From Acidobacteriota bacterium (GTDB lineage: Bacteria > Acidobacteriota > JAQAZP01), in the NCBI GenBank assembly GCA_032127265.1, contig JAQAZP010000103.1, forward strand, positions 831 through 64,830: 64,000 nucleotides of DNA. Reading direction: 5' to 3'. The notes under the pieces are model-generated. The model did no database searches. It saw only the letters and a list, made by a program, of their open reading frames with translations, and had not been told where the DNA came from. Shown here in pieces: positions 1-59,438 of the stretch. Made by a program: the position numbers and the translations under genes. Every line of letters starts with the position of its first letter. The stretch's first letter is position 1.

Positions 1-819
1 GTCCAGGACATCTCGAACCAACGGGTGGCCGATGCGGGTGCAGCATCAGCGGGAACCGCCTGGTATCTGGAAAGCCGTGGGGTGGTCTTCGAGAAAAACG
101 ACCCGACCAAGGCATACAACGAACCGCCGAACCGGGTGATCCGCCGGGTGACCCTGGCCCGTGAAATCCGGCGGCTGCCCATCGCACCCACCGCGGCAGC
201 GGCGCTGATCTCCGATGTGGGCCATGTGATCATCGAAACCGGTGGCCGGCTCCGCGGCTTTGACGGTCTGGCCCTGGTCTGGGACAAGCAGGGCGGGGGT
301 ACGACGAGAACCAACCGCGGCGAAGTGGACGGCGGCAGGGCCTGGGCTTCGGTGTTTGCCGGTGAAGCTGACGACTTTTCCGCCCTGGTGACCAGGGTGT
401 TTGCCACCACCCCGGAAGAGTTGCAGAACATGTCCGACATCTACGCCACTTCAGTGGATGAGCTTCCCATCCGACTACCGGACCTGGGCATCATTTACAT
501 CGACGGTGATGCGACATTCACTTCGGCCACCCCGCTCTACGGCGGCGGAGCCCTGGTGGTCAACGGCAACCTGACCCTCAGCGATAACAGTTCTTCCTAC
601 TATTCCGGACTGGTGGTGGTCAATGGGGACTATACCCAACGATCACCATCGCTGGTCAGCGGTTCGGTGATCGTACTCGGTGACAGCGACGTCCGGGGCG
701 GAATGGAGATGGCAGAAATCATCTACGAAGACGAAATCCTGAGCGTGGTACGCCAGAAACTGGGGCAGTACCGCTTTTCCCGGTCACCCTACCACGCGCC
801 CAACCGGGGGGGGATCTGA
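1..819 (+). CDS. hypothetical protein, 5'-partial (frame open to the window edge); first gene of a pilin-like operon
   Basis: Frame 1 has no stop between nt 1 and the GTG at 25, so the gene probably starts upstream of the window. Gly/Val/Asn-rich beta-like C-terminal region. Lies 40 nt upstream of two prepilin-leader genes on the same strand. Confidence 0.4.
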   Translation, partial: VQDISNQRVADAGAASAGTAWYLESRGVVFEKNDPTKAYNEPPNRVIRRVTLAREIRRLPIAPTAAAALISDVGHVIIETGGRLRGFDGLALVWDKQGGGTTRTNRGEVDGGRAWASVFAGEADDFSALVTRVFATTPEELQNMSDIYATSVDELPIRLPDLGIIYIDGDATFTSATPLYGGGALVVNGNLTLSDNSSSYYSGLVVVNGDYTQRSPSLVSGSVIVLGDSDVRGGMEMAEIIYEDEILSVVRQKLGQYRFSRSPYHAPNRGGI

Positions 820-859
820 TGAGCCCGATTACGGCCGCTGGCAAAACCGGAGAAATACA

Positions 860-3800: not shown

Positions 3801-4345
3801 ACTACTGCTTTGTCGTGGCCAACGGCCTCGACAAGGGAGTCTACAGCGGTGAGGGGTACTTCACCCGCTTTACCTTCATGAGCCTGATCTACGGCGTACT
3901 GCGCTCCGGTGTTCCGGGAACGGATGGTCGGATGCACCAGATCCCCCGGGTGGAAATCACCGAACCCTCGGCCGCGGACGGCCTGGAAAACCCCGGTGTG
4001 GAGACCGTGACCTGGGACACCGAGTGGTTCCGCTGGGATAACAAGAAGTATCTCGACACATACTCGGAAGGGTTCAGCGAATCCGACACCATGATCTACG
4101 CACTGAAGTACTCGCCGGACGATGGCGCCACCTGGCGCTACGTGCAGGACCGATCACTGACCGAGGCCGGCGAACGCCCGGACGACGCTCACGAATGTTC
4201 GAGTTCATCCCAGGAGACCTGGAATCTCACAAGCGCGACAGACTACCCCCAGGGGAACTACCTGCTTCGCCTGGAGGCATTCAGGGAACTCATCCCGAGC
4301 CACTACTCATATCACCAGCGCCGAGTTCTCATCGACCGCTATTGA
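860..4345 (+). CDS. giant (1161 aa) protein with a type IV prepilin-like N-terminal cleavage/methylation domain (pseudopilin-like)
   Basis: N-terminus ...KGDSG|VSLAEMLISLFLLSTTLIMIANYV: Gly at -1, Glu at +5 and a hydrophobic helix form a prepilin peptidase signal. The remaining roughly 1100 aa show no recognisable domain. Confidence 0.6.
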   Translation: MNWTSRTGKQKLRKGDSGVSLAEMLISLFLLSTTLIMIANYVGLSFTTTKSNKEKDFATQKAIQIVNELRAYVESGSETPASMLDNFDDGETFNTILTTQRGVVDPDDPLSKNVLDSGNNWHYLRNVRVTALPTENPRDLRVVNIKLYRAEGGEAQKVLADVTTVIRTFITDYFPPSQVYDVYCVALENVPDWWVHMSALRPMIESSFIDLQSRNPGLEFRLHWISRMGYGRDKLYAPFLNLAGGPEAAVNWTFHYPGLIRVSDNFLYYDPMTFQSRLNVDGTMQNATSYALADQFNHAVRYPEELRIRAGRPQDTEVSYRELIERLNSSPEEFVNAIIINLHGELLPIPPIRNFSDAAKDPETDGTSFDNYYNGGSRQGIRVVTHPEKLEYQNTDDVTLRVYAYADRPLKQDPQANCFYNATGNVDAGDNVNIMDDMIVLRLPGIVINDTFTQGNTGDPDLSVSLIRGGAVSWWCHPANNDPNAPPIDMNTMYNYVNIPASTLNDRELTYSPATDWMCFRVFNVPDDGGTPEDETAAVICLYNTPLTCPQASGAYGAPAGNASGLDVNDRLYGLDYIPCPVHSDFIQDLTETSNNPKNTARWIITLKNRVIPDNDRLTVQTRITDRDVDVTSWNLLDGSGLAVNQTGESDNHPYNLSETYAWIGNATLPATERYQLIGDPRHNPYLDVKLRHGYNWYWIDNGAMPGYSGFDRADYGWSSHYVEVDYPRACNLVRSGLLQSGTLYTSMTGYTNYFIGLGGEVGADDANGFEDGIPVNGQPYQGYVGSYHRKDKQDGTRTIEEAANSGDAKWVGLTWLGETFPDTEYLANSVYQTNGNLSSSLFYQVKWNDLSHSAFGWCNKARTRKTGVHGPGTFFNAKGDSSGPFSHAFNQGASGTLQPEGEEMAGIFHFPLPTNFPAARPFNLDAPPHPPEWDMPEYTNVHNTNQFLSEYYTNATGKYSSALIQMQSATNTEMDLTTDDYCFVVANGLDKGVYSGEGYFTRFTFMSLIYGVLRSGVPGTDGRMHQIPRVEITEPSAADGLENPGVETVTWDTEWFRWDNKKYLDTYSEGFSESDTMIYALKYSPDDGATWRYVQDRSLTEAGERPDDAHECSSSSQETWNLTSATDYPQGNYLLRLEAFRELIPSHYSYHQRRVLIDRY

Positions 4346-4384
4346 GTAGAGGAGTCAGCAACGGGACCGCGAAAGGCAACGACC

Positions 4385-5461
4385 ATGAACGGGATCAAAA
4401 TAAAGCGTCCGGAAAAACTGAAACGGGATGGCGGGGTTTCGCTGATCGAGTTGATTATCGTTCTCTTCCTTTTCGCCGTCGTCGGAATCATGACCTATGG
4501 CATCCTGGTGGGAACCGCTCGCACCAACCTCTTCCTCGAATCCCACAACGACCTGGGCGAGTTCGGCCAGCGGCTGGTCAACCAGATCAAGACCGAGGCG
4601 TTGCAGTCGAAACGCCTGTTGGACAACAGCACCGCAGGCAACGAATACCTTGCGGTCCTGGATCTGACAGGCGCACCGAATCCGCTGGACAGCACCACAC
4701 TGCCCACCATCGAGGTCTCGGGATCATTTTCACCGAGCATGGCCGACGACACGGAAAACCCATTTGTCGCCGCCAGCGTGGGCAATGCCCTGCTCTTTGT
4801 CGAATCGATTGCCCCTTACGTGGACGCAGCCAACAACGCCCGGATCGACATCTACCGCTTCAATTTCTACTATCTTTCGAACAACAGCGATCTCAGCATC
4901 GCCGGCAAGGATCACACCCTCGACATCATGCATTGGCAAAGCATCCAGTTCGCCAACTACGATCAGCTCAAGCTGCTCGAGAATCACGACACCAGCGGGG
5001 CCGCTCTGGCGGCTGCGCTCAGCGGCCTGCAGACTGCCGACCCGGCGACGGAACGGGAAGCAATCACCTGTGCCTGGGCCCCGGCCAAACCGGCGGGCAG
5101 GGCTTTCTACAACGTCAATGGAGCGACATCGCTCCCCGATGACCCTGACAGCAACTACACCATCGGGATGGGTTCGATCCGACAGGCAATCGCCAACCTC
5201 AACGAAGTGCGCATCGGCGGCGACATGCCGTACACCGTGGCTTTCAACTCCGGTGAAAGTTTCCCGATACTCGAGCCGGTTCCGCTCTTTGCCACAGCCG
5301 ACGAAACGGGAGACGGGTTCCCCAACGGCCTGGAGACGATGATTGCCGGTCCATCCGGCGGCCGCAAGATTTTCATCAGGCTTGTGCTGGTGGCTGACAA
5401 CGGCGGGGGCAATCTCGCGGCACAGGAAAACGTGGTGCTGATCAACGCAATGGACTTCTAG
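4385..5461 (+). CDS. minor pilin / pseudopilin-like protein (358 aa) with a prepilin-type N-terminus
   Basis: N-terminus ...RDGG|VSLIELIIVLFLFAVVGIMTYG (G at -1, E at +5). Starts 39 nt after the previous gene, same strand. Confidence 0.6.
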   Translation: MNGIKIKRPEKLKRDGGVSLIELIIVLFLFAVVGIMTYGILVGTARTNLFLESHNDLGEFGQRLVNQIKTEALQSKRLLDNSTAGNEYLAVLDLTGAPNPLDSTTLPTIEVSGSFSPSMADDTENPFVAASVGNALLFVESIAPYVDAANNARIDIYRFNFYYLSNNSDLSIAGKDHTLDIMHWQSIQFANYDQLKLLENHDTSGAALAAALSGLQTADPATEREAITCAWAPAKPAGRAFYNVNGATSLPDDPDSNYTIGMGSIRQAIANLNEVRIGGDMPYTVAFNSGESFPILEPVPLFATADETGDGFPNGLETMIAGPSGGRKIFIRLVLVADNGGGNLAAQENVVLINAMDF

Positions 5462-34591: not shown

Positions 34592-34705
34592 TGAAAAACC
34601 TCACCTAAGGCTCAAGGGCAAGGCGCGCGCCGCTGAGCAAGCGGAGCCTACTCTGTAGTAGGTGAGCATTGCGAAGTGGCGCGCAACGCAGCCATTGAGT
34701 CTTAG
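34592..34705. repeat. 17-bp terminal inverted repeat (gaaaaacctcacctaag / cttaggtgaggtttttc) flanking an approximately 85-bp spacer with internal palindromes
   Basis: Read from the sequence. Spacer contains cctactctgtagtagg and ggcgcgcgcc. The right arm overlaps the stop of the convergent GT4 gene. Confidence 0.45.
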
Positions 34706-35871
34706 GTGAGGTTTTTCAAGAGTGATTCGTACTGGCCCATAACCCGGTCCCAGGTATAGTTGGCCAGGTAGTAGGCATTGCCCTGGCGGCCCAGGGTATG
34801 CCCCAGGTCGGGCCGCTCCAGCAGCAGGTTCAGCGCGTGGGAGAACTCCTCGAAGCTCCGGTAGCTCAGACCGCCGTCGGCGCGACGCACCTGGCCCTCG
34901 AGCACCGGGCAGCTGGCGTTGACCAGCACCGGTCGGTTACGCCCCCAGGCTTCCAGCACCACCATGCAGAGGCTTTCATAGCGCGAGGGGACCACCAGCA
35001 TGGAGCAGGCATCCAACGCCTGGTATTTCTCCCGGTCATCCACCCCGCCGAGGTGGATGATGTCCGGGTGCTGGGGAATCTGAAGCACCGGGGTGCCGAT
35101 GAGCACCAGCCGGGTGAAGAGATGGCGGATCCGGCTGTGGCTGATAAAGTGGTCGAAGAGCTGGTCGCAGCCCTTGTTCCAGTCGATCCGTCCGATGTAG
35201 AGAAGAAACGGCCCGTCCAGGCCATGCTTTTGCCGAAAGTCTTCGGTGGATCCCACGTTCCCGGGAATTTCCACGCCCACCCCCACGACCTCGCCGGGGG
35301 CGGCACGTCCACCGGTGACCCGGTGGACCAGTTCACGTTCCTCCACCGAGTTGTGCACGATGGCCCGGGGGAGGCCGAACATCCGGGCAAAGATCCCGAG
35401 AAAAACCGCTTCGTCTTCCTCCGCGGTGGGGACGAGGATTGCTTTGCGGCCCAGCGCCTTCACGCCGTGAAAGCTGGTGTAGTAGCGGTAACAGAAGAAA
35501 AAGACAAAGTCGAAACGGCTCTCTTCGCGCTGGATCGCTTCCACCAGCGCCGGGGCGTAGGGGCCGTTCTCTTCCACCCAGAGCAGCTCGTCCTCCTTGC
35601 TGTGCTCCTGATGAAAAACATGGTGCGAGATATCCGAGAAGCGGTCCAGGTTTCGCTGCCGCGCGACGGCGAACCGGTGAACCGGAATGCCGTTTACCTC
35701 CTCGGTACTCTGGGGGTAGTGATTTTTCCAGAGCAGGTATTCAAAGGCGCAGGTGGTGAACACCTCCACATCGTGGTTCACGGAGAGCCGTTCCGCGATC
35801 CAGCGGCAGTGCAGCTCGGCGCCGCCGTTGATCTCCAGTCCATATCGCTGAACCACGAATGCCAGACGCAT
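34702..35871 (-). CDS. glycosyltransferase family 4
   Basis: GT4 C-terminal signature region (PSRYESLCMVVLEAWGRNRPVLV). Confidence 0.85.
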   Translation of the reverse strand: MRLAFVVQRYGLEINGGAELHCRWIAERLSVNHDVEVFTTCAFEYLLWKNHYPQSTEEVNGIPVHRFAVARQRNLDRFSDISHHVFHQEHSKEDELLWVEENGPYAPALVEAIQREESRFDFVFFFCYRYYTSFHGVKALGRKAILVPTAEEDEAVFLGIFARMFGLPRAIVHNSVEERELVHRVTGGRAAPGEVVGVGVEIPGNVGSTEDFRQKHGLDGPFLLYIGRIDWNKGCDQLFDHFISHSRIRHLFTRLVLIGTPVLQIPQHPDIIHLGGVDDREKYQALDACSMLVVPSRYESLCMVVLEAWGRNRPVLVNASCPVLEGQVRRADGGLSYRSFEEFSHALNLLLERPDLGHTLGRQGNAYYLANYTWDRVMGQYESLLKNLT

Positions 35872-45827: not shown

Positions 45828-46004
45828 GTATTTTCTCGTGTTGTTTTAGTGCCGAACGCCCCGCATCAGCCGCAAGCCGAGACGGCGCGCTGGTTGCTTT
45901 GGACCGCCTTAAAGCCCCGTAACGAGCCTCTGATCAGCCGTTCGGTTTACAACCAGCGTGACGGAAGCGGCTTGACCGTTGAATGCGGTCGTTGGCCAGT
46001 TACT

Positions 46005-46382
46005 TTATATCTTCTTTGGAAAGTACTTGACGTCAGGCAAACCCTTGAAATCAATATCCTGCGTCCATAAAGTAGCTTCATATAATCGTGCCGTTGCCAG
46101 GATGATGCTGTCTGCCATGGGCAAAGAGTGCTTAATGCTGAATTTGGCGGCAGATAAAGAAAGCCCAGGCGTGAGTTCTGCCACGATGCCCCGTTGCATG
46201 GCACTGACAGCCTGAAGTGCTTCATGCTCACCACGTTCTCGAAGTACGACTTTGAAAACTTCATATAGTGCAACGGTAGGCATAACCAGAGATTCAATAT
46301 CTTTCAGTGCAGGCAGGAAGTGTTTTGCATTCCTCCCGTCGGCGAAGTACTCAAGCCACCCGGAGGAGTCGACGATGTTCAT
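46005..46382 (-). CDS. vapC: VapC PIN-domain toxin
   Basis: MNIVDSSGWLEYF..., PIN acidic residues D5, E and D near the C-terminus, 125 aa. Overlaps vapB by 4 nt. Confidence 0.85.
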   Translation of the reverse strand: MNIVDSSGWLEYFADGRNAKHFLPALKDIESLVMPTVALYEVFKVVLRERGEHEALQAVSAMQRGIVAELTPGLSLSAAKFSIKHSLPMADSIILATARLYEATLWTQDIDFKGLPDVKYFPKKI

Positions 46383-46585
46383 ACCCTGTCTTCCTCCCGC
46401 TCAAATTCTGTGTTGATTCCTTTCAAAAATCCACGTAGCTCTTCGATATCACGCTCTGGAATCAGCTCAACTCTGCCATCATACTCAACAACCTGCATTT
46501 TCTGTCCTGGCCGGAGGCGCAAGTTATCTCGGATTGGCCGCGGGATAACGACCTGATATTTGGGGGATACAGTTACGGTGATCAT
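46379..46585 (-). CDS. vapB: VapB antitoxin (AbrB/SpoVT/MazE-fold)
   Basis: MITVTVSPKYQVVIPRPIRDNLRLRPGQKM matches the swapped-hairpin DNA-binding motif. 68 aa. Confidence 0.8.
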   Translation of the reverse strand: MITVTVSPKYQVVIPRPIRDNLRLRPGQKMQVVEYDGRVELIPERDIEELRGFLKGINTEFEREEDRV

Positions 46586-46594
46586 GTTCTTTCC

Positions 46595-46634
46595 TCCATC
46601 GATGCATATCGGTATTACATTACATCCATCGATG
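46595..46634. promoter_or_regulatory. 9-bp inverted repeat (ccatcgatg-N21-catcgatgg) immediately upstream of vapB, candidate operator
   Basis: Read from the sequence. TA loci are typically autoregulated by the antitoxin binding palindromes in their promoter. Confidence 0.35.
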
Positions 46635-47075
46635 GCGATTCGTCAAGTAATATTTTTTTGGCCACCAATTAATTATCTGGATATCCGTATATTCACATCC
46701 TCAAGTTATTTTATAACTCGTTCCAGGCTCTGATTGGCTTGGTTCGATGATGGCATGAGACCTGCATAACTAGCTGAAGAATCTAGTAGATATTACCCTT
46801 GCTGGGCGATAATGACAAGTGTTTGCGTAATGTACAATGGCTCATGCGTCCAGATAAGCCCGGCAGGGCGTTGATATGTGGAAGGTAAGGGCGAACATGA
46901 GATCAGCACGGTTTGGTTATCCTGATAGCAATGATGTCTGTATATGCACGAAATCTCGTGCTTATCTGGAAAGGATGCTGGCTGAAACCAGCTTATCCAC
47001 AAGTGATGAGGTGTAATCGCGTCCGAAGAGCAGGAAGGCCTGGCGGGGTTTGCCTCCTGGCTCCGTGAGCGGTGG

Positions 47076-47519
47076 ATGGCCCGCGAAAACCGGGTCCCCT
47101 ACTTCCTGAAATGGGTCCAACGGTTTCTCGGTTTGGCCCGGGCCAGACCGGGGGAATCCTGGCACGATTCCCTGCGCATCTTCCTCGAGGACCTGGAAGC
47201 GGGCGGAGCGCCCGACTGGCAGGTCCGCCAGGCCGCCGATGCGGTGAGCCTGTACCACGGTCAGTTTCTGGAGTCCGCCGGTGGGCGATTGACCGCCGAG
47301 GGAACCGAGCCCGGCCCGAAGGAGGATGGTCCACCATCTCCCGATGAGAAGCCGCCGGTCGATTCACCTTTTGATCGCGCTACGCCTGCCGATCCGAGAG
47401 TGATCGTGAACGAGCTCGAGCGACCCTGCTTTCGCCACTTTTCCGGATTCCGGCAGCTTACCCGGATCTGGAATGGCCGGACATCGGGAAGTCTCTTCAC
47501 TCTGCGGCAGAAACTTTGA
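47076..47519 (+). pseudogene. truncated tyrosine-recombinase gene, integron-integrase (IntI)-like N-terminal SAM-like domain only
   Basis: YFLKWVQRFL...WHDSLRIFLEDLEA...QVRQAADAVSLYHGQFL parallels IntI (YVHWVRAFIRF...EVEAFLSWLA...QALAALLFFYGKVL). After about 70 aa the frame becomes low-complexity (Pro/Glu-rich) and stops. The catalytic domain is absent. Confidence 0.45.
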
Positions 47520-47736
47520 GAGAGTGCGGGCCCCGGCGGTCCGGCCTGCCCCGCACCATCGGTCGCACGGTACTTCACCGGGGGAAACAGGGCCGAAACA
47601 GGGGTAAGTAATTGATCCCCGGGAGCCAATTTGTAAAAATATGTTATAGTTATGAGTTAACAGGAGAAACAGCGTGGTAGTTTGCGGCAGCCGAGGGGCT
47701 GTTGTTCGTGAACTCCGTTCTGTATCGGAAAGTAAC

Positions 47737-48429
47737 ATGGGAAAAAACGAAAACAAGCCGGGTAACGGGGTCGCTGTCCCCTTCAGGATCAGGGACTGCG
47801 CCCTGATCCCGCTGGCCACAGGCCAGAAGGCGCAGAACCTCAAGGAACTGCACCACTTGCTGCAGGAGGCCGATGCCGGTTGCATCTACTACGCCTTCTG
47901 GGGCGGCCTGCTCAAGCCGGGGTTCGAGAACCCGGAGTATGCCAACGATTTTGCTGCCTGGGCCCACCGGGCCCTGCACGACGACGTGCTGGCGGAGAAG
48001 TTGGGGGTAATCGACCCCACCGAGTTCGACGACCTGGAGTCGCTGCGCCGGGAACTGCTGGACGTGATCGAGGAACACCTGGACACCATCGAGATTATCA
48101 CCTGGACCCGGCGGGACCAGCAGTTCAACTTTATTACCTCCCAGATCGTGGTCTTCGACGCCCAGCGGGAGATCACCGAGCCGCGGCAGCTCGCCGAGGT
48201 GGTGGGCGGGATGAGCAGCAGCAGCATCTTCTACCACTTCATCGACGCCCGCCGGCGGTCCGAGGAGGCGAACGACGATTTCGGATCCTGGCTCAGCGGC
48301 TTCGGGGACCAGTACTGGGATCTGCAGCGCTTGCTGGCCGAGGTGGACCCCTACTTTTCCACCCTGGTGGAACTTCGTGACCAGCTTGCCACGCTTTTCG
48401 AAAACTATTTCACCGCCAATCGGCACTGA
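47737..48429 (+). CDS. conserved hypothetical protein, likely a partner of the downstream TreT-like glycosyltransferase
   Basis: Start taken at MGKNENKPG (ATG 47737). Ends 5 nt before the GT4 gene. No catalytic motif recognised. Confidence 0.5.
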   Translation: MGKNENKPGNGVAVPFRIRDCALIPLATGQKAQNLKELHHLLQEADAGCIYYAFWGGLLKPGFENPEYANDFAAWAHRALHDDVLAEKLGVIDPTEFDDLESLRRELLDVIEEHLDTIEIITWTRRDQQFNFITSQIVVFDAQREITEPRQLAEVVGGMSSSSIFYHFIDARRRSEEANDDFGSWLSGFGDQYWDLQRLLAEVDPYFSTLVELRDQLATLFENYFTANRH

Positions 48430-48434
48430 GGACC

Positions 48435-49667
48435 ATGCTCGAAGAATATACAGACATCGTCGGCAGGGACGTCATCGATCACCTGCGGCAGCTGGTGGCC
48501 CCGATGCGCGGGATCAAGGTGGTTCACGTCAACTCCACCCGCGAGGGCGGGGGCGTGGCCGAGATCCTGCACAAGCTGGTGCCTCTGCAGCAAGACCTGG
48601 GGATCGATTCCTCCTGGGAGGTGATCACCGGCAACCCCGACTTCTACCACTGCACCAAGAACTTCCACAACGGGCTCCAGGGCAACCGGGTGGTGCTGAC
48701 GGACAGCCAGCTGCGCAACTACATGAAGACCAACGAGGAAAACTGCGAACGGCTGCGGGGGACACTGGCCGAGGCTGACATGGTCTTTATCCACGACCCG
48801 CAGCCGGCGGCCTTCCTCCGCTACTGCCCCGAACGGAAGGGCAAGTGGGTCTGGCGCTGTCACATCGACGCCAGCACACCCTACCGCCCGGTGTGGCGGT
48901 TTCTCCGCGACCTGGTCAAGGATTACGACGCCAGCATCTTCTCCCTGGCCGCCTTTGCCAAGCGCCTGCCGCATCCGATCTACCTCATCCCGCCCAGCAT
49001 CGATCCGCTGACCGACAAGAACATCGACCTCGAGGATGCAGAGGTCAACCAGCTCTACCCCAGGTTCGGCCTCGATCCCGACCGGCCGATCATGACCCAG
49101 GTCTCCCGCTTCGACCGCTTCAAGGACCCGCTGGGGGTGGTCCAGGCCTACCGGCTGACCAAGAAGTTCCACCCCACGCTCCAGCTGGTGCTGGCCGGCG
49201 GCGGAGCCAGCGACGACCCGGAAGGGGCGGTAGTGCTGGACGAGGTGAACCAGGCCTGCCACGGGGACAAGGACGCCCACGTGCTGATGCTGCCCCCCGA
49301 CGCCCACCGGACAATCAACGGCCTCCAGCGTCTCTCGGACATCATGCTGCAGAAATCGATCCGCGAGGGATTCGGTCTGACGGTGACCGAGGCGATGTGG
49401 AAGGGCAAGCCGGTGATCGGGGGCAATACCGGTGGAATCCGCCTGCAGGTGGTGAACCACCACACCGGCTTCCTAGTCAGTTCGCCCGAGGGCGCCGCCC
49501 TGCGGATCCGCTACATGCTGCGCCACCGCGACCGGACGCTGGAAATGGGCCGCAAGGCCCGCGAGTTCGTGCGGGAGAATTTTCTGCTCACCCGGCTGCT
49601 CAGGGAACACCTGACACTGATGGCGGCGCTGAACAACGGCATCAAGGACCGCATCGAGCTGAACTGA
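48435..49667 (+). CDS. GT4-family glycosyltransferase, TreT / glucosyl-glycerate-synthase-like
   Basis: 410 aa GT-B enzyme with the EGFGLTVTEAMWKGKPVIGGNTGG signature. Confidence 0.7.
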   Translation: MLEEYTDIVGRDVIDHLRQLVAPMRGIKVVHVNSTREGGGVAEILHKLVPLQQDLGIDSSWEVITGNPDFYHCTKNFHNGLQGNRVVLTDSQLRNYMKTNEENCERLRGTLAEADMVFIHDPQPAAFLRYCPERKGKWVWRCHIDASTPYRPVWRFLRDLVKDYDASIFSLAAFAKRLPHPIYLIPPSIDPLTDKNIDLEDAEVNQLYPRFGLDPDRPIMTQVSRFDRFKDPLGVVQAYRLTKKFHPTLQLVLAGGGASDDPEGAVVLDEVNQACHGDKDAHVLMLPPDAHRTINGLQRLSDIMLQKSIREGFGLTVTEAMWKGKPVIGGNTGGIRLQVVNHHTGFLVSSPEGAALRIRYMLRHRDRTLEMGRKAREFVRENFLLTRLLREHLTLMAALNNGIKDRIELN

Positions 49668-49673
49668 CAGATC

Positions 49674-50477
49674 ATGGAACTCCTCGACCAGACCTTCGAT
49701 TCGGCACGGTTCTGGGCCACGGTGGCCGGCAGCGGGCAATCGCTGCTGATGCTCGACTACGACGGTACCTTGGCGCCATTCGTGACCCGGCGTGACCAGG
49801 CGGTACCCTACCCCGGGGTGCGGGAGGCCCTGCGGCAACTTGCCGCTACCGGCCGCACCCGGGTGGTGGTGATCACCGGCCGCAACGCCGGCGACCTGGT
49901 GCCACTGCTGGGCCTGGAACCATCGCCGGAAATCTGGGGCTCCCACGGCGGGGAACGGATGATGCCCGACGGCAGCTACAGTGTGCAGCCCCTGGAAGAG
50001 GCCCACCTGATCGGGCTCCAGGAAGCGGACGCCGTGATCGAGGAATCAACCCTGCCCCAGCACTTCGAGATCAAGCCGCTGGGCCGTGCCTTTCACTGGC
50101 GCGGGCTGCCGGAGGAGGAGGTCCGCCGGGCCGACCGGACGGTTACCGGGCCGTGGCGCACGGTCGCCGAAACCAGCGGCCTTGAGCTGCGGGACTTTGA
50201 CGGCGGCGTTGAGCTGCGGGTCCCGGGGGTGGACAAGGGGCAGGCGGTGAGCCAGCTGATGAGAGAGATGGGCCAGGGGACCCCGTCCGCCTATCTCGGC
50301 GATGACCGTACGGACGAGGACGCGTTTCGCGCCCTGGGGCCGCAGGGCCTCTCGGTGATGGTCCGTACCGCCTACCGCTCCACTGCGGCGCGGCTCTGGC
50401 TCAAGCCGCCGGAGGAGCTGATCGGTTTTCTGCTGCGCTGGCTCGATGCCACGGAACAGGGGAAGGAGGAACGATGA
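49674..50477 (+). CDS. otsB: trehalose-6-phosphate phosphatase (HAD-IIB)
   Basis: LMLDYDGTLAP motif I, GDDRTDEDAF motif IV. Overlaps otsA by 4 nt. Confidence 0.85.
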   Translation: MELLDQTFDSARFWATVAGSGQSLLMLDYDGTLAPFVTRRDQAVPYPGVREALRQLAATGRTRVVVITGRNAGDLVPLLGLEPSPEIWGSHGGERMMPDGSYSVQPLEEAHLIGLQEADAVIEESTLPQHFEIKPLGRAFHWRGLPEEEVRRADRTVTGPWRTVAETSGLELRDFDGGVELRVPGVDKGQAVSQLMREMGQGTPSAYLGDDRTDEDAFRALGPQGLSVMVRTAYRSTAARLWLKPPEELIGFLLRWLDATEQGKEER

Positions 50478-51967
50478 TTGACGCCGTTAACGTGACAAAC
50501 AGCCGGCTGATAATCGTCTCCAACCGCCTCCCCGTGGTACTGGCCAAGGGCGAGGATGGATCCTGGCAGGCCACCGCCGGGTCCGGGGGCCTGGTCACCG
50601 CCATGGCCCCGGTACTTCGTGACCGCGGCGGCAGCTGGATCGGCTGGACCGGCACGGCCGAGGAAGAACATGCCGACCTGGGAGATCTGCTGGGCCAGGC
50701 CACCAGCAAATCGGGGTACACCATGTCGCCGGTGCGCCTGACCCGTAACGAGGTGCGGAATTTCTATCTCGGATTTTCCAACGAATCGCTCTGGCCTCTG
50801 TTCCACGACCTGTTCCAGCTCTGTATCTTCGACTCCGTCTACTGGAAGGCCTATATCGACGTCAACCGCAAGTTCGCGGAGGTGATTTCCGAAAAGAGCG
50901 GCGAGGACGACTTCATCTGGGTCCACGACTACCACCTGATGGACGTGGCGCGGGTTCTGGCGAATTGGAAAGTCAGGCGCCGCATCGGTTTCTTCCTCCA
51001 CATCCCCTTCCCGCCGCTGGACGTCTTTCTCAAGCTCCCCTGGCGGTCGGAGATCCTCAGCGCGCTGCTGGGTTACGACCTGCTGGGGTTCCAGACCATG
51101 CGGGACCGGCGGAACTTCCTCCATTGCGTCAAGTCGCTGATCAAGGGGGTGGCGGTGCGCGGCAAGGGCCACGTGGTCACGGTGCACACCAAGGACCGCG
51201 AGATCCGGGTGGGCACCTTTCCCATCAGCATCGATTTCAACGAATTCGCCCAGCAGGCCGCCTCCGACGAGGTTGCCAAAGCCGCCTGGTATATCCACGA
51301 GAAGCTGCCCGAAATCCAGATCATCCTCGGGGTGGACCGACTGGATTACACCAAGGGTATCCCCCTGCGGCTGAAAGCCTTCCGCAACGCCCTGCTCCGC
51401 TATCCCGAACTGCAGGAAAACGTGGTGCTGGTCCAGGTGACCGTGCCCAGCCGCAGCGAGATCGCCATGTACCAGGAACTGAAATCGGAAATCGAACGGC
51501 TGGTGGGCGAGATCAACGGAGAGTTCACCCGGTCGGGCTGGGTACCGATCCACTACATCTGCCGCCACCTCGAGCGGGAGGAACTGCTGGCCTATTACCG
51601 TGCGGCCGAAATCGCGCTGGTCACGCCGATGAAGGACGGGATGAACCTGGTGGCCAAGGAATACTGCGCGTCGAACGTCGATGCCAAGGGTGTGTTGATT
51701 CTCAGCGAGTTCGCCGGCGCGGCAGCCCAGTTGCAGAAGGGGTCACTGCTGGTCAACCCCTACGATCTGGACAAAGTGGCCGACGCCATCCACCAGGCGT
51801 TCCACATGGCAAAGGAGGAGAGGGAGGCCCGGATGCGCCGGATGCGACAGCTGATAAAACGGCAAGACATCTTCGCCTGGGTCAACTCGTTTCTCAGCGC
51901 CGCCATCGACCGGGACCTCACCTCATATCCCGTACTCGAGGATTACGTGCCGCAGTTCGAGTTGTAA
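50474..51967 (+). CDS. otsA: alpha,alpha-trehalose-phosphate synthase (GT20)
   Basis: LIIVSNRLPV..., WVHDYHLM, GT20 C-terminal region. 497 aa. Confidence 0.92.
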   Translation: MIDAVNVTNSRLIIVSNRLPVVLAKGEDGSWQATAGSGGLVTAMAPVLRDRGGSWIGWTGTAEEEHADLGDLLGQATSKSGYTMSPVRLTRNEVRNFYLGFSNESLWPLFHDLFQLCIFDSVYWKAYIDVNRKFAEVISEKSGEDDFIWVHDYHLMDVARVLANWKVRRRIGFFLHIPFPPLDVFLKLPWRSEILSALLGYDLLGFQTMRDRRNFLHCVKSLIKGVAVRGKGHVVTVHTKDREIRVGTFPISIDFNEFAQQAASDEVAKAAWYIHEKLPEIQIILGVDRLDYTKGIPLRLKAFRNALLRYPELQENVVLVQVTVPSRSEIAMYQELKSEIERLVGEINGEFTRSGWVPIHYICRHLEREELLAYYRAAEIALVTPMKDGMNLVAKEYCASNVDAKGVLILSEFAGAAAQLQKGSLLVNPYDLDKVADAIHQAFHMAKEEREARMRRMRQLIKRQDIFAWVNSFLSAAIDRDLTSYPVLEDYVPQFEL

Positions 51968-51996: not shown

Positions 51997-52770
51997 TCAA
52001 CTGTGGTGCGAGAGCTTCTTCTCCACCAGGCGGCAGATCTGCGCCGCCATGTATCCCGCGCCGAACCCGTTGTCGATGTTGACCACGGTGAGCCCGCTGG
52101 CACAGGAGTTGAGCATGCCCAGCAGTGCGGCCACGCCGCCGAACGCCGTTCCGTAGCCTATGGAGGTGGGAACAGCGATCACCGGCACGCTGACCAGGCC
52201 GGCGACCACGCTGGGCAGCGCACCTTCCATGCCGGCCACGGCAATGATCACGTCGGCCCGGGCCAGCCGCCGTTCCTGGCTGAGCAGCCGGTGCAGGCCG
52301 GCCACGCCCACATCGTGGGCCCGTTCCACATTCTCCACCATCAGTTCGGCGGTGAGCGCCGCTTCCTCGGCCACCGGAATGTCCGATGTGCCGGCGGTGA
52401 GCACTAAAACGGTGCCCGGTGCGCGGTGGAAGCCGGGTTCCTCGATGATCACCGCCCGGGCCGCCGCACTGAATCGAGCCTCGGGAAACCGGCCGGCCAC
52501 CAGGTCGTATTTTTCCCGGCCGACCCGAGTCACCAGCACCGGACAGCCGTTCTCGCGCAGCTTGGTTGCGATGGCCAGGATCTGCTCCGGCTCCTTCCCT
52601 TCACCGAAGATGACCTCCGGAAACCCCTGCCGCAGGTGGCGATGGTGGTCGAGCTTGGCGAAACCGAGGTCTTCAAAGGGCAGGTGCCTCAACCGCTCCA
52701 GCCCCTCCTCAACACCGAGTTTTCCTTCGCGCACGGCGCCCAGCAGCGCCTCCAGATCCTTCAGGTTCAT
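51997..52770 (-). CDS. larB: nickel-pincer cofactor biosynthesis protein LarB (PurE-like carboxylase/hydrolase)
   Basis: C-terminal PurE-like region VLVLTAGTSDIPVAEEAALTAELMV...HDVGVAGLHRLL...VIIAVAGMEGALPSVVAG. Start taken at MNLKDLEALL (52770). Confidence 0.7.
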   Translation of the reverse strand: MNLKDLEALLGAVREGKLGVEEGLERLRHLPFEDLGFAKLDHHRHLRQGFPEVIFGEGKEPEQILAIATKLRENGCPVLVTRVGREKYDLVAGRFPEARFSAAARAVIIEEPGFHRAPGTVLVLTAGTSDIPVAEEAALTAELMVENVERAHDVGVAGLHRLLSQERRLARADVIIAVAGMEGALPSVVAGLVSVPVIAVPTSIGYGTAFGGVAALLGMLNSCASGLTVVNIDNGFGAGYMAAQICRLVEKKLSHHS

Positions 52771-52925
52771 CGACCCTGTCTCCTTCACTCCACCGGGCCA
52801 GCCGGCGACATCGCTTAATTGACACATCCCGGTCCCCATAATAACATGACCGCCGTTCCTGTTTCCGGCCTCCAGCAGCCGAAACTCCGGCAGAGGCCAT
52901 TCTTCGCTACGACGGGAAGGGCCAC

Positions 52926-53669
52926 ATGGGCAGTAAAAAGGTCCACCAGGGAAATCTCGAAACGGTTTCCCCGTCAACGCTGATCGCTGACATCTTTCGC
53001 GGGCGGTTCACCGGCATTCTGACCCTGGAACAGGGGAAACGGAAAAAGTCGCTCTTCATCAAGGGCGGTTCGGTGATCTTCGCCGACTCCACCGACATGG
53101 AAGACCGGCTGGGACAGGTGCTGGTGCGCGGCAACCGGATCACCGAGGCAAAAATCACCTCGGCCCTGGAGATCCAGAAAAAAGAGGGGTCGGAGGACAA
53201 GCGGCTGCTCGGCGCGATCCTGGTCAAGGAGGGGTTCATCAAGCCGCTGGAGCTGGTTTGGGCGGTAAAGACCCAGGTCGAAGGCATCTTCTGCGACTGC
53301 TTCCTCTGGAACGAGGGGAGTTTTGCCTTTGCCGAAGAGGATGCCCCCGAATCCTGGCCGGTGATCACCCTCGACCTGTCGATGCCGGAGCTGCTGCGCA
53401 TGGCCCTCAACATGGTGGAAGACCCGATCACCATGGCCAATCTGCTGGGCGACTTCAGCCAGTTGATCGACGTCTCCGCCAAGTGGCTGGATATGGTGGA
53501 ACAGTTCAAGCTGAAGCCGCTGGAGTTCGACCTGCTGGGCCGGGCCCAGGCCGGTGCCGACACCCTGGCCACTCTGATCCTCGCCTCGCCCTACCCCGCC
53601 GCCGAGACCGGCCGCGGCGCCCTGCTGCTGAGTTGTCTGGGTGTGATTACGCTGAGCCCGACTTCCTGA
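52926..53669 (+). CDS. DUF4388-like protein
   Basis: N-terminal GNLETVSPSTLIADIF...GILTLEQG...IFIKGGSVIFA pattern is characteristic of DUF4388. Confidence 0.5.
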   Translation: MGSKKVHQGNLETVSPSTLIADIFRGRFTGILTLEQGKRKKSLFIKGGSVIFADSTDMEDRLGQVLVRGNRITEAKITSALEIQKKEGSEDKRLLGAILVKEGFIKPLELVWAVKTQVEGIFCDCFLWNEGSFAFAEEDAPESWPVITLDLSMPELLRMALNMVEDPITMANLLGDFSQLIDVSAKWLDMVEQFKLKPLEFDLLGRAQAGADTLATLILASPYPAAETGRGALLLSCLGVITLSPTS

Positions 53670-53812
53670 AGAGTGAAAAAGGTATAATTTCCATACCTTT
53701 TTTATACCATTTCCCTGCCTTCTCCCTATCCCTGTATTGAGGCCAGGGGTTTGGCGGGGTTATCCGGGTCAGGCGGGGCAGGTGTCGCGGGCCGGGGGTA
53801 AGCGCCCCGGGT

Positions 53813-55648
53813 TCAGGCGGGGTCGCGGAACCGCTCACGGATCGTCTCGATGATCGAAGTGCTGGCCTTGCCCTGCACCAGGGGGATCACCACCACCCGG
53901 CCGCCGGCCGCTTCCACCTCTTCCCGGCCCACGATCTGCTCGGGCTTCCAGTCACCGCCCTTGACCAGCACGTCGGGCTTGACCCGCTTGATCAACTCCA
54001 GCGGTGTGTCCTCCTCGAAGGGGACCACCCGGTCCACGCAGTCGAGGGCGGAGAGAATGGCCGCGCGTTCCTCCTGGGGCAGGATGGGCCGCTTGTCGCC
54101 TTTCAGGCGGCGGACCGAGTCGTCGCTGTTCAGTCCCAGCACCAGCAGGTCCCCTTCGGCCCTGGCCCGCTGGAGGACCCGGATGTGACCGCTGTGCAGC
54201 AGGTCGAAGCAGCCGTTGGTGAAGACCACCCTGCGGCCCTCGACCCTCGCCCGTTCCAGAAATCCGGTGAGGTCGCCCTGCTCCGCATCAGGGGTTTGCC
54301 CGGATGCTTCCCCGTCATCGACCACGGAGGTCACCGGGATCCCTTCGGAGAACGACCAGTTGTGGGCCAGCCGAACGATGCCCACGTCCTTGAGCCGCGA
54401 GCGGACACGGAATGAGTGGAGCCCGCGGTGGTAGTCGAAGGCATAACCGTCCTTGCGATGCACGGCGAGGTCGAGGAAGTAGTTCCCCTCGACCAGGTCG
54501 AGGGAGGGGATCTCGAAGGAGAAGGAGTGCGGGCCGGGTTCCACCTCTCCGGACCGCAGCCCCTCGATATCGGTATTGGTCCCGTAGCAGCAGGTGCCGC
54601 CGGCGTCGAAGATACCCACGCCGAAGACGAGGCCCTTTTCACCGGCCAGATTAACCTCCAGATCAGCCGTGATGGTCATGGCATCCCCCGGCTGGTAGAC
54701 ATACCGCTCACTGCCCTCACCGCCGAACAGGGTCACCGCCTTGATCTCGATCTCCCTGGTGCCCCAGCGGCGGCGCTCGGGCTCGGAGGGCTTGGCGGCC
54801 TCGCCGTCCCCCTCGGCCGTCTCTTCGCTGCCGGTCACCACCTCTTCGGCCGGCGCATCGGCGTCCACCCTGCCCCCCCGGCCCACCAGTTCGGCGTCCT
54901 CCTTGCCGGCCACGTCGAGCAGGTAGGCGTCGATGACCCGCCGCGGGTCACCGCTGTCGCGCATCTTCCCGTTATCGATCCAGATCGCCCGGTCGCAGAG
55001 CCCCTCCACCATGTCCAGCGAGTGGGTGACCAGCACGATGGTCTTGCCCCGGCGCTGGAAGTTGCGGATCCGCTCGATGCACTTGTGGGAGAAGGCCTCG
55101 TCGCCCACGGCGAGGATCTCGTCGATGAGCAGGATCTCGGGGTCCACGTGCACGGCCACCGAGAACCCGAGACGCATATACATCCCCGATGAATACGTCT
55201 TCACCGGAGCGTCGATGAACTCCTCCAGACCGGCAAAACTGACGATCTCCTCGAAGCGCCGGGTGATCTCCTGCTTGCTCAGGCCAAGCATGATGCCGTT
55301 GATGAAGACATTCTCCCGCCCGCTGATCTCGGGGTGGAAACCGGCGCCCAGTTCGATCAGCGCGGCGATCCGGCCGCTGGTGGTCACCGTGCCGCTGGTG
55401 GGACGGCTGATCCCGGCGATCAGTTTGAGCAGGGTGCTCTTGCCCGATCCGTTCGAACCGATGACACCCACCGTGCCGCCGGCGGGGACACTGAAACTGA
55501 CCCGGTCCAGGGCCTGGATCACCTGGCTGCGCGCAGCGCCGATGGCCCGGTCGCGGCCGAGGAGCATGCTCTTGAGCGACTGGAAGCGGCGCCGGTAGGC
55601 GTAGCGGCGATAGGCCTTGGAGACGTCCTGCAGTATCACCGGGTCCAT
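53813..55648 (-). CDS. wzt: polysaccharide ABC-transporter ATP-binding protein (Wzt/KpsT-like) with Wzt-C-like carbohydrate-binding domain, fused to a C-terminal RfaE-domain-II / cytidylyltransferase-like nucleotidyltransferase
   Basis: N-terminal ABC ATPase ([19 protein letters not shown]-like [21 protein letters not shown]). Middle beta-rich domain. C-terminal ...[20 protein letters not shown]...[17 protein letters not shown]...[11 protein letters not shown]..., the HldE adenylyltransferase-domain signature. Confidence 0.8.
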
Positions 55649-56578: not shown

Positions 56579-57736
56579 TTATTCGGCGGCCTCGCCTTCA
56601 TGCATCGCCGCGAAAGTTTCGTAAGGGATGTCCTGCCCCTGGTAGACCACGAACATCTTGATGAACTTCCTCACGTCACCCTTCTCGTCAAAGGAGGTCA
56701 GGCCGGAGACACCCGGGTAGTCGCGCAGGTTGAGCAGGGTCAGCTGGATCTTCTCCGGGTAGGGCCCTTCCTTCTCGATGGCGTGAGCCAGGATCTTCAG
56801 CGCATCGTACGCGTGAGCGGCATAGATATCGGGCTTTTTACCGTACTTGGCCTGGTAGGCCTGGGAGAAGGAATGGATCGGTTCCTCTTCCGCGTCGGGG
56901 TCGAACTCGAGCTTCGGGAAAATAACACCCTCGGCCGCAGAGCCCGCCTTCTCCATCAGGGCGGCGGAGTTGAATGCCCCGACGCTGAGTTTGACCACGT
57001 CGACATTCTGGCGCTCCAGCTCGAGCAGGATCTCGGCCAGGTCGTTGTAGTAGCCGGCAATGTACACGGCATTGGCGTCGGGCTCCGCGAAAGCCTTGAT
57101 CTCGGCCACCATCTCGCTGAAGTTGGTCTGGTTCTCGGGGTAGACATACATCTTGAGGATCTTGCCGCCCATGTCGGTGTAGTTGTCCACAAAGACCTTC
57201 TTCAGGCCGCGGCCATAGTCGTTCTGCATGGCCATCACCACCATGTTCCGCTTGATGCCCAGGTTGTCGTAGGCAAAGGCCGCCATTCTCGCCCCTTCAA
57301 GCACGTCGGAGGGGAAGTTGCGGTAGATGTAGTTGCCGAGATCGGAGATCAGCGGGCTGGAGCTGGCCGGGCTGAGCAGCACCCGCTGGGCTTGCTCGGC
57401 TATGGGCGCCATGGCCCGGGTCACCGAACTGGAGACGCCGCCGATCACGGCCAGCACCTTTTCTTCACCAAGCAGCGAGGTGATCTCGGTCTCACCCACC
57501 GATGGCGTGGTCTGGCTGTCACGGACGAGGAGGTGCAGCTGGTTGCCCTTTATCCCGCCGGCGACATTGATTTCTTCCAGGGCCAGCTGAAGACCTTCGT
57601 TGACGCTCTTCCCGTAGTCGGACGCTTCACCGGTAAGCGGAATGACCGCGCCGATTTTCACTTCTTGTTGACAGCCGGTCACGACACAAAGTGTCAGGAG
57701 AATGATGATCAGCAAGGCGCCCTGTTTCGTTCGCAT
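56579..57736 (-). CDS. ABC transporter substrate-binding lipoprotein, branched-chain amino-acid (LivK) type
   Basis: Lipobox LTLCVVTGC, then KIGAVIPLTGEASDYGKSVNEGLQLALEEIN, typical of periplasmic binding protein type I. Confidence 0.85.
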   Translation of the reverse strand: MRTKQGALLIIILLTLCVVTGCQQEVKIGAVIPLTGEASDYGKSVNEGLQLALEEINVAGGIKGNQLHLLVRDSQTTPSVGETEITSLLGEEKVLAVIGGVSSSVTRAMAPIAEQAQRVLLSPASSSPLISDLGNYIYRNFPSDVLEGARMAAFAYDNLGIKRNMVVMAMQNDYGRGLKKVFVDNYTDMGGKILKMYVYPENQTNFSEMVAEIKAFAEPDANAVYIAGYYNDLAEILLELERQNVDVVKLSVGAFNSAALMEKAGSAAEGVIFPKLEFDPDAEEEPIHSFSQAYQAKYGKKPDIYAAHAYDALKILAHAIEKEGPYPEKIQLTLLNLRDYPGVSGLTSFDEKGDVRKFIKMFVVYQGQDIPYETFAAMHEGEAAE

Positions 57737-58046
57737 GATGCCCCCCAGGTAATGGGATTTTCAAGGATGTATCAAGATAACTTGGTTCCATATTTAGTTT
57801 CGATTCACGTAGGGTTGAATCTAGCAGAGCGGTTCGTGGATGTCAAGAATCCCGGCAGAGCAGTCTTGATCGTATCCTCCTCATTTCAGGCATCTTGCCT
57901 CTCAATTCAGGGGGACGGCGTCAGTGGCCGTTATTTTATGCCGGGTTGGGTGTGTCACGGAAGGCGCCGAGGTGCGGTGAACGGGTTCGGGGCCGCTGGT
58001 CGCACGGTGGGCAGGTTCCTGAGCAGGACTTCGAAGAGCGAGGAGG

Positions 58047-58676: not shown

Positions 58677-59438
58677 TCAGCGGGAAAGCGGTGTGCCACC
58701 CTTGAGCAGGGCTTCGGCCTCGGCGGTGTACAAGCCCGGCCGGCGGAAGAGCACCAGGGGCTCCAGTTCTGAAAGCACGGCGGGTGCGCCCTTCACCGCC
58801 TCCACCAGAATAAGGTTGGGCTCTTCATCCTCCCGCGGCAGGACGTGCCGCACCCTGGCCGGCTGCAACCCTTCCGCGGCCATCAACTGCTGCAGTTCCG
58901 GCCAGCGCCAGGGCCGGTGGATCAGGCCCATCCGGCCGCCCGGCCGGAGGAGACGTGCCGCCGCGGCAAAGAGACCGCCCGGCTCGAGAAGGATCTCCTG
59001 CCTGGCCACGGCCCGCTGCCGGTCAGTGCTGGGCCGAGTGGCCCCAACGGGATGGAATGGCGGATTGCTGACCACCAGATCGTAGCTGCCGGAGGGCTCC
59101 CCGGCGGCAAAGTCCTTCACGTCCTGGTGACGCACCTCGATCCGAGAGGCAAACCCGTTGAGTTGGACATTGCGCCGGGCCAGGGCGGCCAGCACGTCCT
59201 GCACTTCCACCGCCACCAGACGGCGAAACGGGTGGAAGTGGGCCAGCAGGATACCGACCACGCCGCACCCGGCGCCAAGGTCGGCCGCCGTGTCATCGGG
59301 ACCAACCGTGACGAAGCCGGCCAGCAACGGTGCATCCACCGAAAAGCGGTATCCGCGCTTCGGCTGGTGAAAACGGAGTTGTCCGCCAAGGAAGGGGTCG
59401 AGGGTCGATTCGTTGTGCGGTTCAGGTTCCCGGCTCAT
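58677..59438 (-). CDS. tRNA (adenine-N6)-methyltransferase, TrmN6/YfiC-like SAM-dependent methyltransferase
   Basis: GAGCGVVGILLA SAM motif I and NPPF motif IV. Confidence 0.7.
   Translation of the reverse strand: MSREPEPHNESTLDPFLGGQLRFHQPKRGYRFSVDAPLLAGFVTVGPDDTAADLGAGCGVVGILLAHFHPFRRLVAVEVQDVLAALARRNVQLNGFASRIEVRHQDVKDFAAGEPSGSYDLVVSNPPFHPVGATRPSTDRQRAVARQEILLEPGGLFAAAARLLRPGGRMGLIHRPWRWPELQQLMAAEGLQPARVRHVLPREDEEPNLILVEAVKGAPAVLSELEPLVLFRRPGLYTAEAEALLKGGTPLSR

Follow-up and report, generated by a model that had tools for sequence, protein, structure and literature searches.

The wzt::hldC gene and its product

We analysed a 64,000-nucleotide stretch of contig JAQAZP010000103.1 (assembly GCA_032127265.1, Acidobacteriota bacterium), hereafter called the window, in which a single gene, wzt::hldC, joins the ATPase of a Wzm/Wzt-type polysaccharide ATP-binding cassette (ABC) transporter to an ADP-heptose synthase domain. 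The gene starts with ATG and encodes 611 aa followed by a stop codon. It is the sole open reading frame (ORF) at its position in the ORF listing, in agreement with the initial annotation, which had described one polypeptide of this length. The Pfam domains named in that annotation (ABC_tran, Wzt_C and CTP_transf_like) were all found in the protein, and the boundaries between a nucleotide-binding domain (NBD), a carbohydrate-binding domain (CBD) and a C-terminal HldC domain could be placed (Table 1). The database protein P0001 is 100% identical to the fusion protein.

Table 1. Positions of the fusion gene, its encoded domains and the associated elements in the window (GC3, GC content at third codon positions; pLDDT, predicted local distance difference test; AF2, AlphaFold2)
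Feature	Position	Strand	Evidence
wzt::hldC fusion gene, whole	53813..55648	-	single ORF; three Pfam domains; continuous GC3 periodicity
Wzt-type NBD, residues 1-257	54878..55648	-	PF00005 (ABC_tran) at residues 47-178, 5e-21; PDB and Foldseek matches
Linker 1, residues 258-290, acidic, low-complexity	54779..54877	-	pLDDT <50 at 263-288; pairwise identity 0.25, length variable
Wzt_C carbohydrate-binding beta-sandwich (CBD), residues 291-441	54326..54778	-	PF14524 (Wzt_C) at residues 292-427, 8e-25, 87.9 bits vs. cutoff 30.4; all-beta AF2 model
Linker 2, former wzt-hldC junction, residues 442-459	54272..54325	-	pLDDT <50 at 443-457; identity 0.23
HldC domain (C-terminal)	53813..54271	-	TIGR02199; 5x9q; similarity to E. 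coli HldE; motifs; CTP_transf_like (Pfam) at residues 476-567, 9e-21
wzm, ABC-2 type permease partner, 265 aa	55651..56448	-	PF01061, 2.7e-20
Peripla_BP_6 lipoprotein gene, 385 aa, possible accessory	56579..57736	-	PF13458, 1e-55; lipobox VTGC
Promoter-like site TTGACA-17-TAGATT, TG-extended	57818..57846	-	upstream of the binding-protein gene; consensus scan 10/12
AT-rich perfect 10-bp hairpin, AAAAAGGTAT / 7-nt loop / ATACCTTTTT, flanked by A and T runs	53676..53702		read from the sequence

The first two domains are organized as in WzmWzt transporters (Aquifex aeolicus 7k2t/8dku; Escherichia coli O9a type), with the NBD and Wzt_C in one chain, the ABC motifs and an ABC-2 permease gene upstream. 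The best PDB match of residues 43-253 using phmmer was A. aeolicus Wzt (8dku, 2e-66), and the top Foldseek matches of the N-terminal part were 7k2t and 8dku, with approximately 430 aligned columns spanning the NBD and the CBD. The ABC motifs, comprising Walker A (G64-T72), YSSGM (152-156), D176-E177 and H209, were invariant in 33 homologs, and the N-terminal segment of the NBD carried the invariant residues F22, L25, K26 and S27. The NBD scored below all equivalog-level cutoffs (TagH, PRK13545/13546; galactan Wzt, NF050108: 226 vs. 538, 185 vs. 320 and 207 vs. 400 bits). The permease gene wzm stops 2 nt ahead of the ATG of the fusion, and its product gave weak NCBIfam matches to galactan Wzm and KpsM. 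By analogy with WzmWzt, the presumed substrate is an undecaprenyl-diphosphate-linked, capped polysaccharide. The N-terminal two-thirds of the fusion protein amount to a complete Wzt, with Wzm as its permease partner. Unlike WzmWzt, the fusion has an extra enzyme of about 150 residues after the CBD.

The initial annotation had identified this C-terminal region as a nucleotidyltransferase, with which the domain searches agree, and had left the choice between ADP-heptose synthase domain II and TagD, of which the former stood and the latter was rejected. The NCBIfam model TIGR02199 (rfaE_dom_II) matched residues 465-604 over model positions 4-143 of 144, scoring 203.5 bits when run on the entire protein and 207 bits on the domain alone, both over the curated cutoff (181.5), while the TagD/CDP-glycerol model TIGR01518 reached only 57.4 bits against its cutoff of 165.4. 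The domain is 53% identical, over 139 residues, to residues 335-473 of HldE (RfaE) from E. coli K-12. The C-terminal domain of HldE is its ortholog (PRK11316 positions 324-473), and there, too, HldC forms the C-terminal half of a fusion protein. The partner in HldE is a PfkB-type kinase of the same pathway, whereas the partner in the present protein, a transporter ATPase, comes from another branch of lipopolysaccharide (LPS) assembly. The PfkB-type heptose-7-phosphate kinase domain is absent from the fusion, since PRK11316 was matched at positions 324-473 only (195 vs. 521 bits).

The closest solved structure for residues 473-606 was the stand-alone HldC of Burkholderia pseudomallei (BpHldC; 5x9q, 4e-36), which differs from the fused domain in being a free cytoplasmic protein. 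Five motifs (TNG, NSD, KG, ExTP, KGG) are predicted to bind heptose-1-phosphate in BpHldC (PMC7993394). All five are present in the fusion protein, as TNG at 477-479, NSD at 507-509, KG at 516-517, EDTP at 546-549 and KGG at 563-565. The signature string quoted in the initial annotation occupies residues 477-488 and includes the HxGH motif (485-488), which proved intact as H485-S-G-H488. The C-terminal nucleotide motif (FEHDRSTT-type) has kept its S/T-T-S part as A595-S596-T597-S598, with STS at 596-598. By contrast, Phe143 of BpHldC, which was proposed to stack on adenine (PMC7993394), is replaced by Leu590 in the fusion (~53877-53879) and by Leu, Val or Met across the acidobacterial HldC family. 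This family also has KGGDW (residue 567, ~53946-53948) where E. coli HldE and BpHldC have KGGDY. Judged from the alignments, the two replacements may affect the nucleotide preference of the enzyme.

The motifs of the HldC domain were equally conserved in fused (n = 123) and split (n = 32) copies. Walker A, YSSGM, Walker B and FDxxHxGH were kept in all 132 fused proteins (132/132), among which the sole motif variation was a change from TNG to ANG in ten. By these sequence features, the C-terminal ~150 residues make up a complete HldC in which no catalytic or sugar-phosphate-binding motif is missing.

An AlphaFold2 model of the fusion protein was built with a 33-sequence family alignment and had a mean pLDDT of 78. 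It comprised the NBD, an all-beta CBD (293-441, strands with a pLDDT of 84-95) and a Rossmann-type domain (460-607), separated by low-confidence linkers at 263-288 and 443-457. The model thus predicts three independently folded domains on disordered linkers, whose mutual arrangement it leaves undefined because the predicted template modelling score (pTM) was 0.46. Within the family, the mean pairwise identity was 0.78 for the NBD, 0.58 for the CBD and 0.66 for HldC, with values of about 0.24 for the linkers. The length of linker 2 varies even inside the clade of the window, with the frame preserved. In split relatives, the stop of wzt and the start of hldC fall at the position of linker 2, so that its ~15-25 disordered residues correspond to the stop/start junction of the split genes.

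With both domains intact, the gene is in all probability a real fusion of a conserved operon. Its GC3 was 0.77-1.00 in every 30-codon block, both linkers included, and the two alternative frames carry stops in the wzt-hldC junction. The survey for proteins of the same architecture, which the initial annotation had proposed, recovered the same fusion ORF in eight other 90%-identity clusters and in the cluster member P0121, with 78-89% identity. These fused relatives from the clade of the window come from NCBI, ENA and JGI assemblies, and their junction linkers differ in length and sequence, all of them in frame. Beyond this clade, more than 110 further clusters with about 50-56% identity and lengths of ~590-650 aa share the same three Pfam domains. 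In most relatives there are two genes, and one indel at their junction could fuse them, which might suggest that two genes were merged here through a frameshift introduced in sequencing or assembly, or through a stop that was miscalled; however, such an artefact deserves practically no credence because independent assemblies with variable linkers all keep the frame, and the fused clusters outside the clade and the unbroken GC3 periodicity argue against it as well.

Distribution and evolution of the wzm-wzt-hldC unit

When species-representative genomes were scanned using the family alignment, 80 loci were retrieved, and seven further loci brought the total to 87. The three domains were located in these loci by tblastn, each locus being limited to ±10 kb. 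A wzm homolog was found directly upstream of wzt in 84 of the 87 loci, and hldC directly followed wzt in about 40 of them. The hldC-linked loci were labelled Vicinamibacteria/Vicinamibacterales, Aminicenantes or unclassified Acidobacteriota. In 32 species-representative loci, wzt and hldC were separate genes. The premise of the initial annotation that activation enzymes are normally separate proteins is therefore true even of the commonest state in this family. The distance from the wzt stop to the nearest hldC start was -14 to +23 nt in most of the 32 split loci, seven of which have a 4-nt overlap, an arrangement typical of translational coupling.

Most relatives, which belong to soil and sediment Acidobacteriota, hold wzt and hldC as two touching genes. 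The only species-representative locus with a single ORF was L008, and the loci that had been fetched via fusion proteins were also single ORFs. The split operons of Vicinamibacteria and Aminicenantes (e.g., L009-L036) contain orthologous genes in the same order, with 44-67% identity per domain and the same motifs, but they encode two polypeptides, with a stop of wzt and a start of hldC of their own, where the fusion encodes one. Accordingly, wzm-wzt-hldC is a conserved three-gene unit in Acidobacteriota, and the gene in the window is a covalent version of it that originated via stop loss or a small indel. The fusion derives directly from the split wzm-wzt-hldC operon.

In a neighbour-joining tree of the Wzt part, the nine sequences of the window's clade were all fused and the Aminicenantes clade was all split, while fused and split states interleaved at least six times in the Vicinamibacteria-like clade. 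The fusion therefore arose or reverted repeatedly, and it looks like a recurrent, nearly neutral variant. After clustering at 50% identity, the fused proteins were represented by unfused Wzt proteins of ~450 aa; consequently, a search among the 50% representatives was uninformative on the size of the family. In the Vicinamibacteria-type loci L012, L017, L027 and L049, hldC lies 0.15-1.5 kb downstream of wzt. Relatives labelled Thermoanaerobaculia, Holophagales, Desulfarculales and Firmicutes have Wzt with its CBD and no hldC, and some of the unlinked Wzt relatives sit in loci with additional conserved neighbour genes.

The CBD has 31 positions with at least 95% conservation across 68 hldC-linked homologs. 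The same residues were retained at 0.81-0.99 in five groups of unlinked Wzt relatives, and the CBD type therefore does not track hldC. The idea that the hldC-linked CBD has a signature of its own, as a possible reader of a heptose cap, was rejected for this reason.

The RpoD encoded in the window shares 91-92% identity with three metagenome clusters, followed at ~63-65% by matches that include Vicinamibacterales and Acidobacteriota. By this RpoD comparison, the window appears to belong to a small lineage. Several metagenome-assembled genomes titled Bifidobacterium breve, Eubacteriales/Clostridia, Patescibacteria or Chrysiogenales (L016, L032, L033, L035, L048, L068) carry wzt-hldC loci; they cluster with Acidobacteriota or Aminicenantes and are probably mis-binned or mislabelled contigs. 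In addition, many of the proteins P0148-P0250 have ~770-830 aa and two stretches that each match the NBD region of the query, a pattern suggestive of Wzt-like proteins in which domains were duplicated or added.

Genomic neighbourhood

The wzm-wzt-hldC unit persists while the flanking genes differ completely between lineages. In Vicinamibacteria-type loci, it is flanked by mfd-surA on one side and by the ATP synthase operon, in some cases accompanied by a PP2C phosphatase, on the other. In the clade of the window, the fusion is preceded by genes for a methyltransferase, a response regulator, the Peripla_BP_6 lipoprotein and Wzm, in this order, and it is followed by a convergent DUF4388 gene, then larB and a trehalose cluster. 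Core chromosome makes up the remainder of the window, with genes for PEPCK, CarB, RpoD, DnaG, MutS2, TsaD and aldolase.

The Peripla_BP_6 lipoprotein gene is located 130 nt upstream of wzm. Homologs (35-38% identity) are found at the equivalent position on the same strand in L024, L045, L055, L056 and L062, five loci that represent different lineages with and without hldC. This gene may belong to the wzm-wzt-hldC unit as an accessory. A partner with a periplasmic binding-protein fold is unexpected for a Wzm/Wzt exporter. The promoter-like site upstream of it is weak evidence because two sites were found where 1.0 was expected. At the other end, the hairpin lies between the convergent fusion and DUF4388 genes, in surroundings of 62-65% GC, and is likely a bidirectional terminator. 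The consensus terminator scan missed it because its stem has only 2 G-C pairs.

The convergent gene (52926-53669, + strand) encodes a DUF4388/PatA_N protein that matched an MshE-related cyclic-di-GMP-binding model with 39.1 bits (cutoff 38), and this neighbour is restricted to the clade of the window. Two genes upstream of wzm, an MTS-type S-adenosylmethionine methyltransferase with an NPPF motif is encoded at 58677-59438 (- strand). Such a methyltransferase gene was found directly upstream of wzm in all Aminicenantes-type loci (L010, L011, L030-L033, L048 and L060 are listed). Known Wzt CBDs read methylated caps, and in this light the neighbourhood is suggestive. No claim is made for this enzyme as a cap methyltransferase, as it fits no curated family (TrmN 69 vs. 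350 bits) and looks like an N-methyltransferase.

Further along, a LarB homolog (nickel-pincer cofactor biosynthesis) is encoded at 51997-52977 (- strand), with 296 bits against a cutoff of 175 over residues 109-316 of 326 only. The homolog in L001 was called as 254 aa, and the extra N-terminal stretch in the window may reflect an over-extended ORF; no other lar genes were noticed near larB. A trehalose-related cluster at 47674-51967 (+ strand), with DUF5752, a TreT-like GT1, OtsB (trehalose phosphatase) and OtsA (GT20), is conserved in L001, a relative with 89% identity. The GC content dips to 0.537 at 46001-48000, between a VIT1 gene and the trehalose cluster, compared with 0.59-0.69 elsewhere in the window, and this region has few convincing ORFs. 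At the start of the window (25-5461, + strand), two ORFs of 264 and 1161 aa without a Pfam match are followed by one whose product has a prepilin-type N-terminal methylation motif, and the region may hold a module related to a pilus or to type II secretion.

Functional interpretation

The explanation toward which we lean, by a narrow balance of the evidence as a whole, is that wzt::hldC encodes a bifunctional LPS-assembly protein that couples O-polysaccharide (O-PS) export with a membrane-proximal supply of ADP-heptose. The protein is read as bifunctional because both halves look fully functional in their sequences. Two neighbouring genes of the conserved acidobacterial operon have been fused into one, and the Wzm2Wzt2 complex would power the inner-membrane export of an undecaprenyl-diphosphate-linked, end-capped polysaccharide in the manner of the A. 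aeolicus and E. coli O9a transporters. The WzmWzt of A. aeolicus exports a lipid-linked, end-capped polysaccharide, and CBD-bearing Wzt proteins recognize the chain-terminating cap (PMC9445017). The products of both halves would meet in LPS assembly, where ADP-heptose would complete the lipid A-core that accepts the exported O-PS. Co-transcription, translational coupling or fusion would keep Wzt and HldC in a fixed proportion and would place ADP-heptose synthesis near membrane-associated heptosyltransferases; heptosyltransferase I genes are annotated in Acidobacteria (PMC9717686). The covalent link would be a recurrent variant of this arrangement, with a small effect of its own and no new mechanism.

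We consider gene adjacency that survives completely reshuffled neighbourhoods to be the strongest evidence for a functional link. Because fused and split states alternate often, the covalent link adds little beyond this adjacency. The functional coupling suggested in the initial annotation is thus supported mainly by conserved adjacency, whereas the covalent connection on which it had been based is not the main support. The most economical rationale for the arrangement would be coordination of two LPS branches that meet at ligation, the heptosylated core acceptor and the exported O-PS, along with a supply of ADP-heptose close to the membrane.

Four observations weigh against this interpretation. 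First, in tblastn searches with E. coli K-12 probes, no GmhA, heptose kinase, GmhB, WaaC/WaaF or WaaL was found in the 64-kb window or within ±10 kb of the 87 loci. HldD had no match in the window with its E. coli probe, and the only matches to other pathway probes among the 87 loci were HldD-like epimerases in four loci without hldC. Since no other heptose-pathway gene was found nearby, only the last enzyme of the ADP-heptose pathway is tied to the transporter. Second, no glycosyltransferase or chain-terminator cluster stands beside the pair, either in the window or in Vicinamibacteria-type loci, and the only GT1 outside the trehalose cluster is at 34702-35871, ~20 kb away. The neighbouring glycan genes that the initial annotation had proposed to examine do not accompany the pair, which, unlike WzmWzt, has housekeeping neighbourhoods without nearby glycosyltransferase, chain-terminator or other O-antigen genes. 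Third, no hldC was found within 10 kb in L022, L037, L052 and L077, which are Vicinamibacterales nested among the linked Wzt proteins, so that wzt-hldC adjacency is not obligatory. Fourth, the equivalent of Phe143 is Leu, Val or Met, and the nucleotide preference of HldC is therefore not certain.

Alternatively, the exported polymer itself might be built from or capped with heptose, in which case the tethered or co-translated HldC would supply ADP-heptose locally to a polymerising or terminating heptosyltransferase and kinetically couple synthesis or termination to export at the transporter. Among the heptose-pathway genes, only hldC is tied specifically to wzt across Acidobacteriota classes, and both the housekeeping neighbourhoods and the conserved CBD (0.58) fit an invariant glycan better than a serotype-variable one. 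There is a precedent in Helicobacter pylori, in which a DD-heptan of up to 23 Hep units occurs in the O-antigen domain (PMC5371381), and known CBD-bearing Wzt proteins recognize a cap that terminates the chain (PMC9445017). However, no heptosyltransferase (GT9) or other glycosyltransferase is linked to the pair, and the conserved CBD residues are retained at 0.81-0.88 in unlinked Wzt relatives from the other groups compared. We regard this as a possible but doubtful explanation.

The re-use of the nucleotidyltransferase as a purely regulatory module, which the initial annotation had also entertained, appears unlikely. Here, the HldC fold would sense ATP, heptose-1-phosphate or ADP-heptose and gate the Wzt ATPase or CBD, so that export awaits the core precursors. 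Failure to ligate exported O-PS would sequester undecaprenyl phosphate, a rationale for such gating. In the model, the HldC domain is on a flexible tether directly after the CBD, a domain whose large nucleotide-dependent rigid-body movements control substrate loading (PMC9445017). However, AF2 predicted no defined interface (pTM 0.46), and most family members are separate proteins, in which gating would need to act in trans. The reading is also disfavoured because fused copies conserve each catalytic and sugar-phosphate motif to the same degree as split ones; catalytic residues that are invariant in fused and free-standing proteins alike would be expected if the domain is an enzyme, but not if it were a degenerate sensor.

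A teichoic-acid-like system, with a TagG/TagH-type exporter joined to a CDP-glycerol-producing, TagD-like glycerol-3-phosphate cytidylyltransferase, is highly improbable: TagGH/TarGH and TagD/TarD do have a related NBD and a related nucleotidyltransferase fold, TagD shares the HxGH motif and TagH models are among the best NCBIfam matches of the NBD (226 bits vs. cutoff 538), but these models remain far under their cutoffs, the C-terminal domain fails the TagD model (57 vs. 165 bits) and passes rfaE_dom_II (207 vs. 181.5 bits), being 53% identical to domain II of E. coli HldE, a Wzt_C CBD is present, WzmWzt gives the best structural match, and the lineage is diderm and Acidobacteriota-like.

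No description of a wzt-hldC fusion or of a wzm-wzt-hldC operon was found in full-text literature searches, and to our knowledge, Wzm/Wzt-class exporters have nothing but a carbohydrate-binding module behind the ATPase. What is new is the wzt::hldC architecture together with the conserved wzt-hldC linkage. The reach of the finding is limited because both domains are ordinary family members and the fusion seems interchangeable with the split state, and the link between two LPS-assembly branches is probably modest. There is also an annotation problem, in that the transporter part is hidden in public records, where the fused proteins of ~600 aa go only by the names "rfaE ... nucleotidyltransferase chain/domain" or "heptose 1-phosphate adenylyltransferase".

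Here, an intact nucleotide-sugar synthase is attached to an exporter of this class, and hldC is the fixed downstream neighbour of the transporter in at least two Acidobacteriota classes and in the lineage of the window. On the gene-fusion signal, one would predict that ADP-heptose synthesis and O-PS export are linked, physically or in stoichiometry, and we know of no model organism with such a link. More speculatively, Wzm-Wzt-HldC might be a distinct, unrecognized glycan export machine in which donor synthesis is attached to the exporter, covalently or as a translationally coupled complex, either so that a conserved surface polymer with heptose in its chain or cap is made and exported at a single site or so that heptose precursor supply gates export; if true, this would be the first nucleotide-sugar synthase that is an integral subunit of a polysaccharide ABC transporter. 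The unit also offers a concrete starting point for work on the LPS of a dominant soil phylum, a subject that has hardly been studied.

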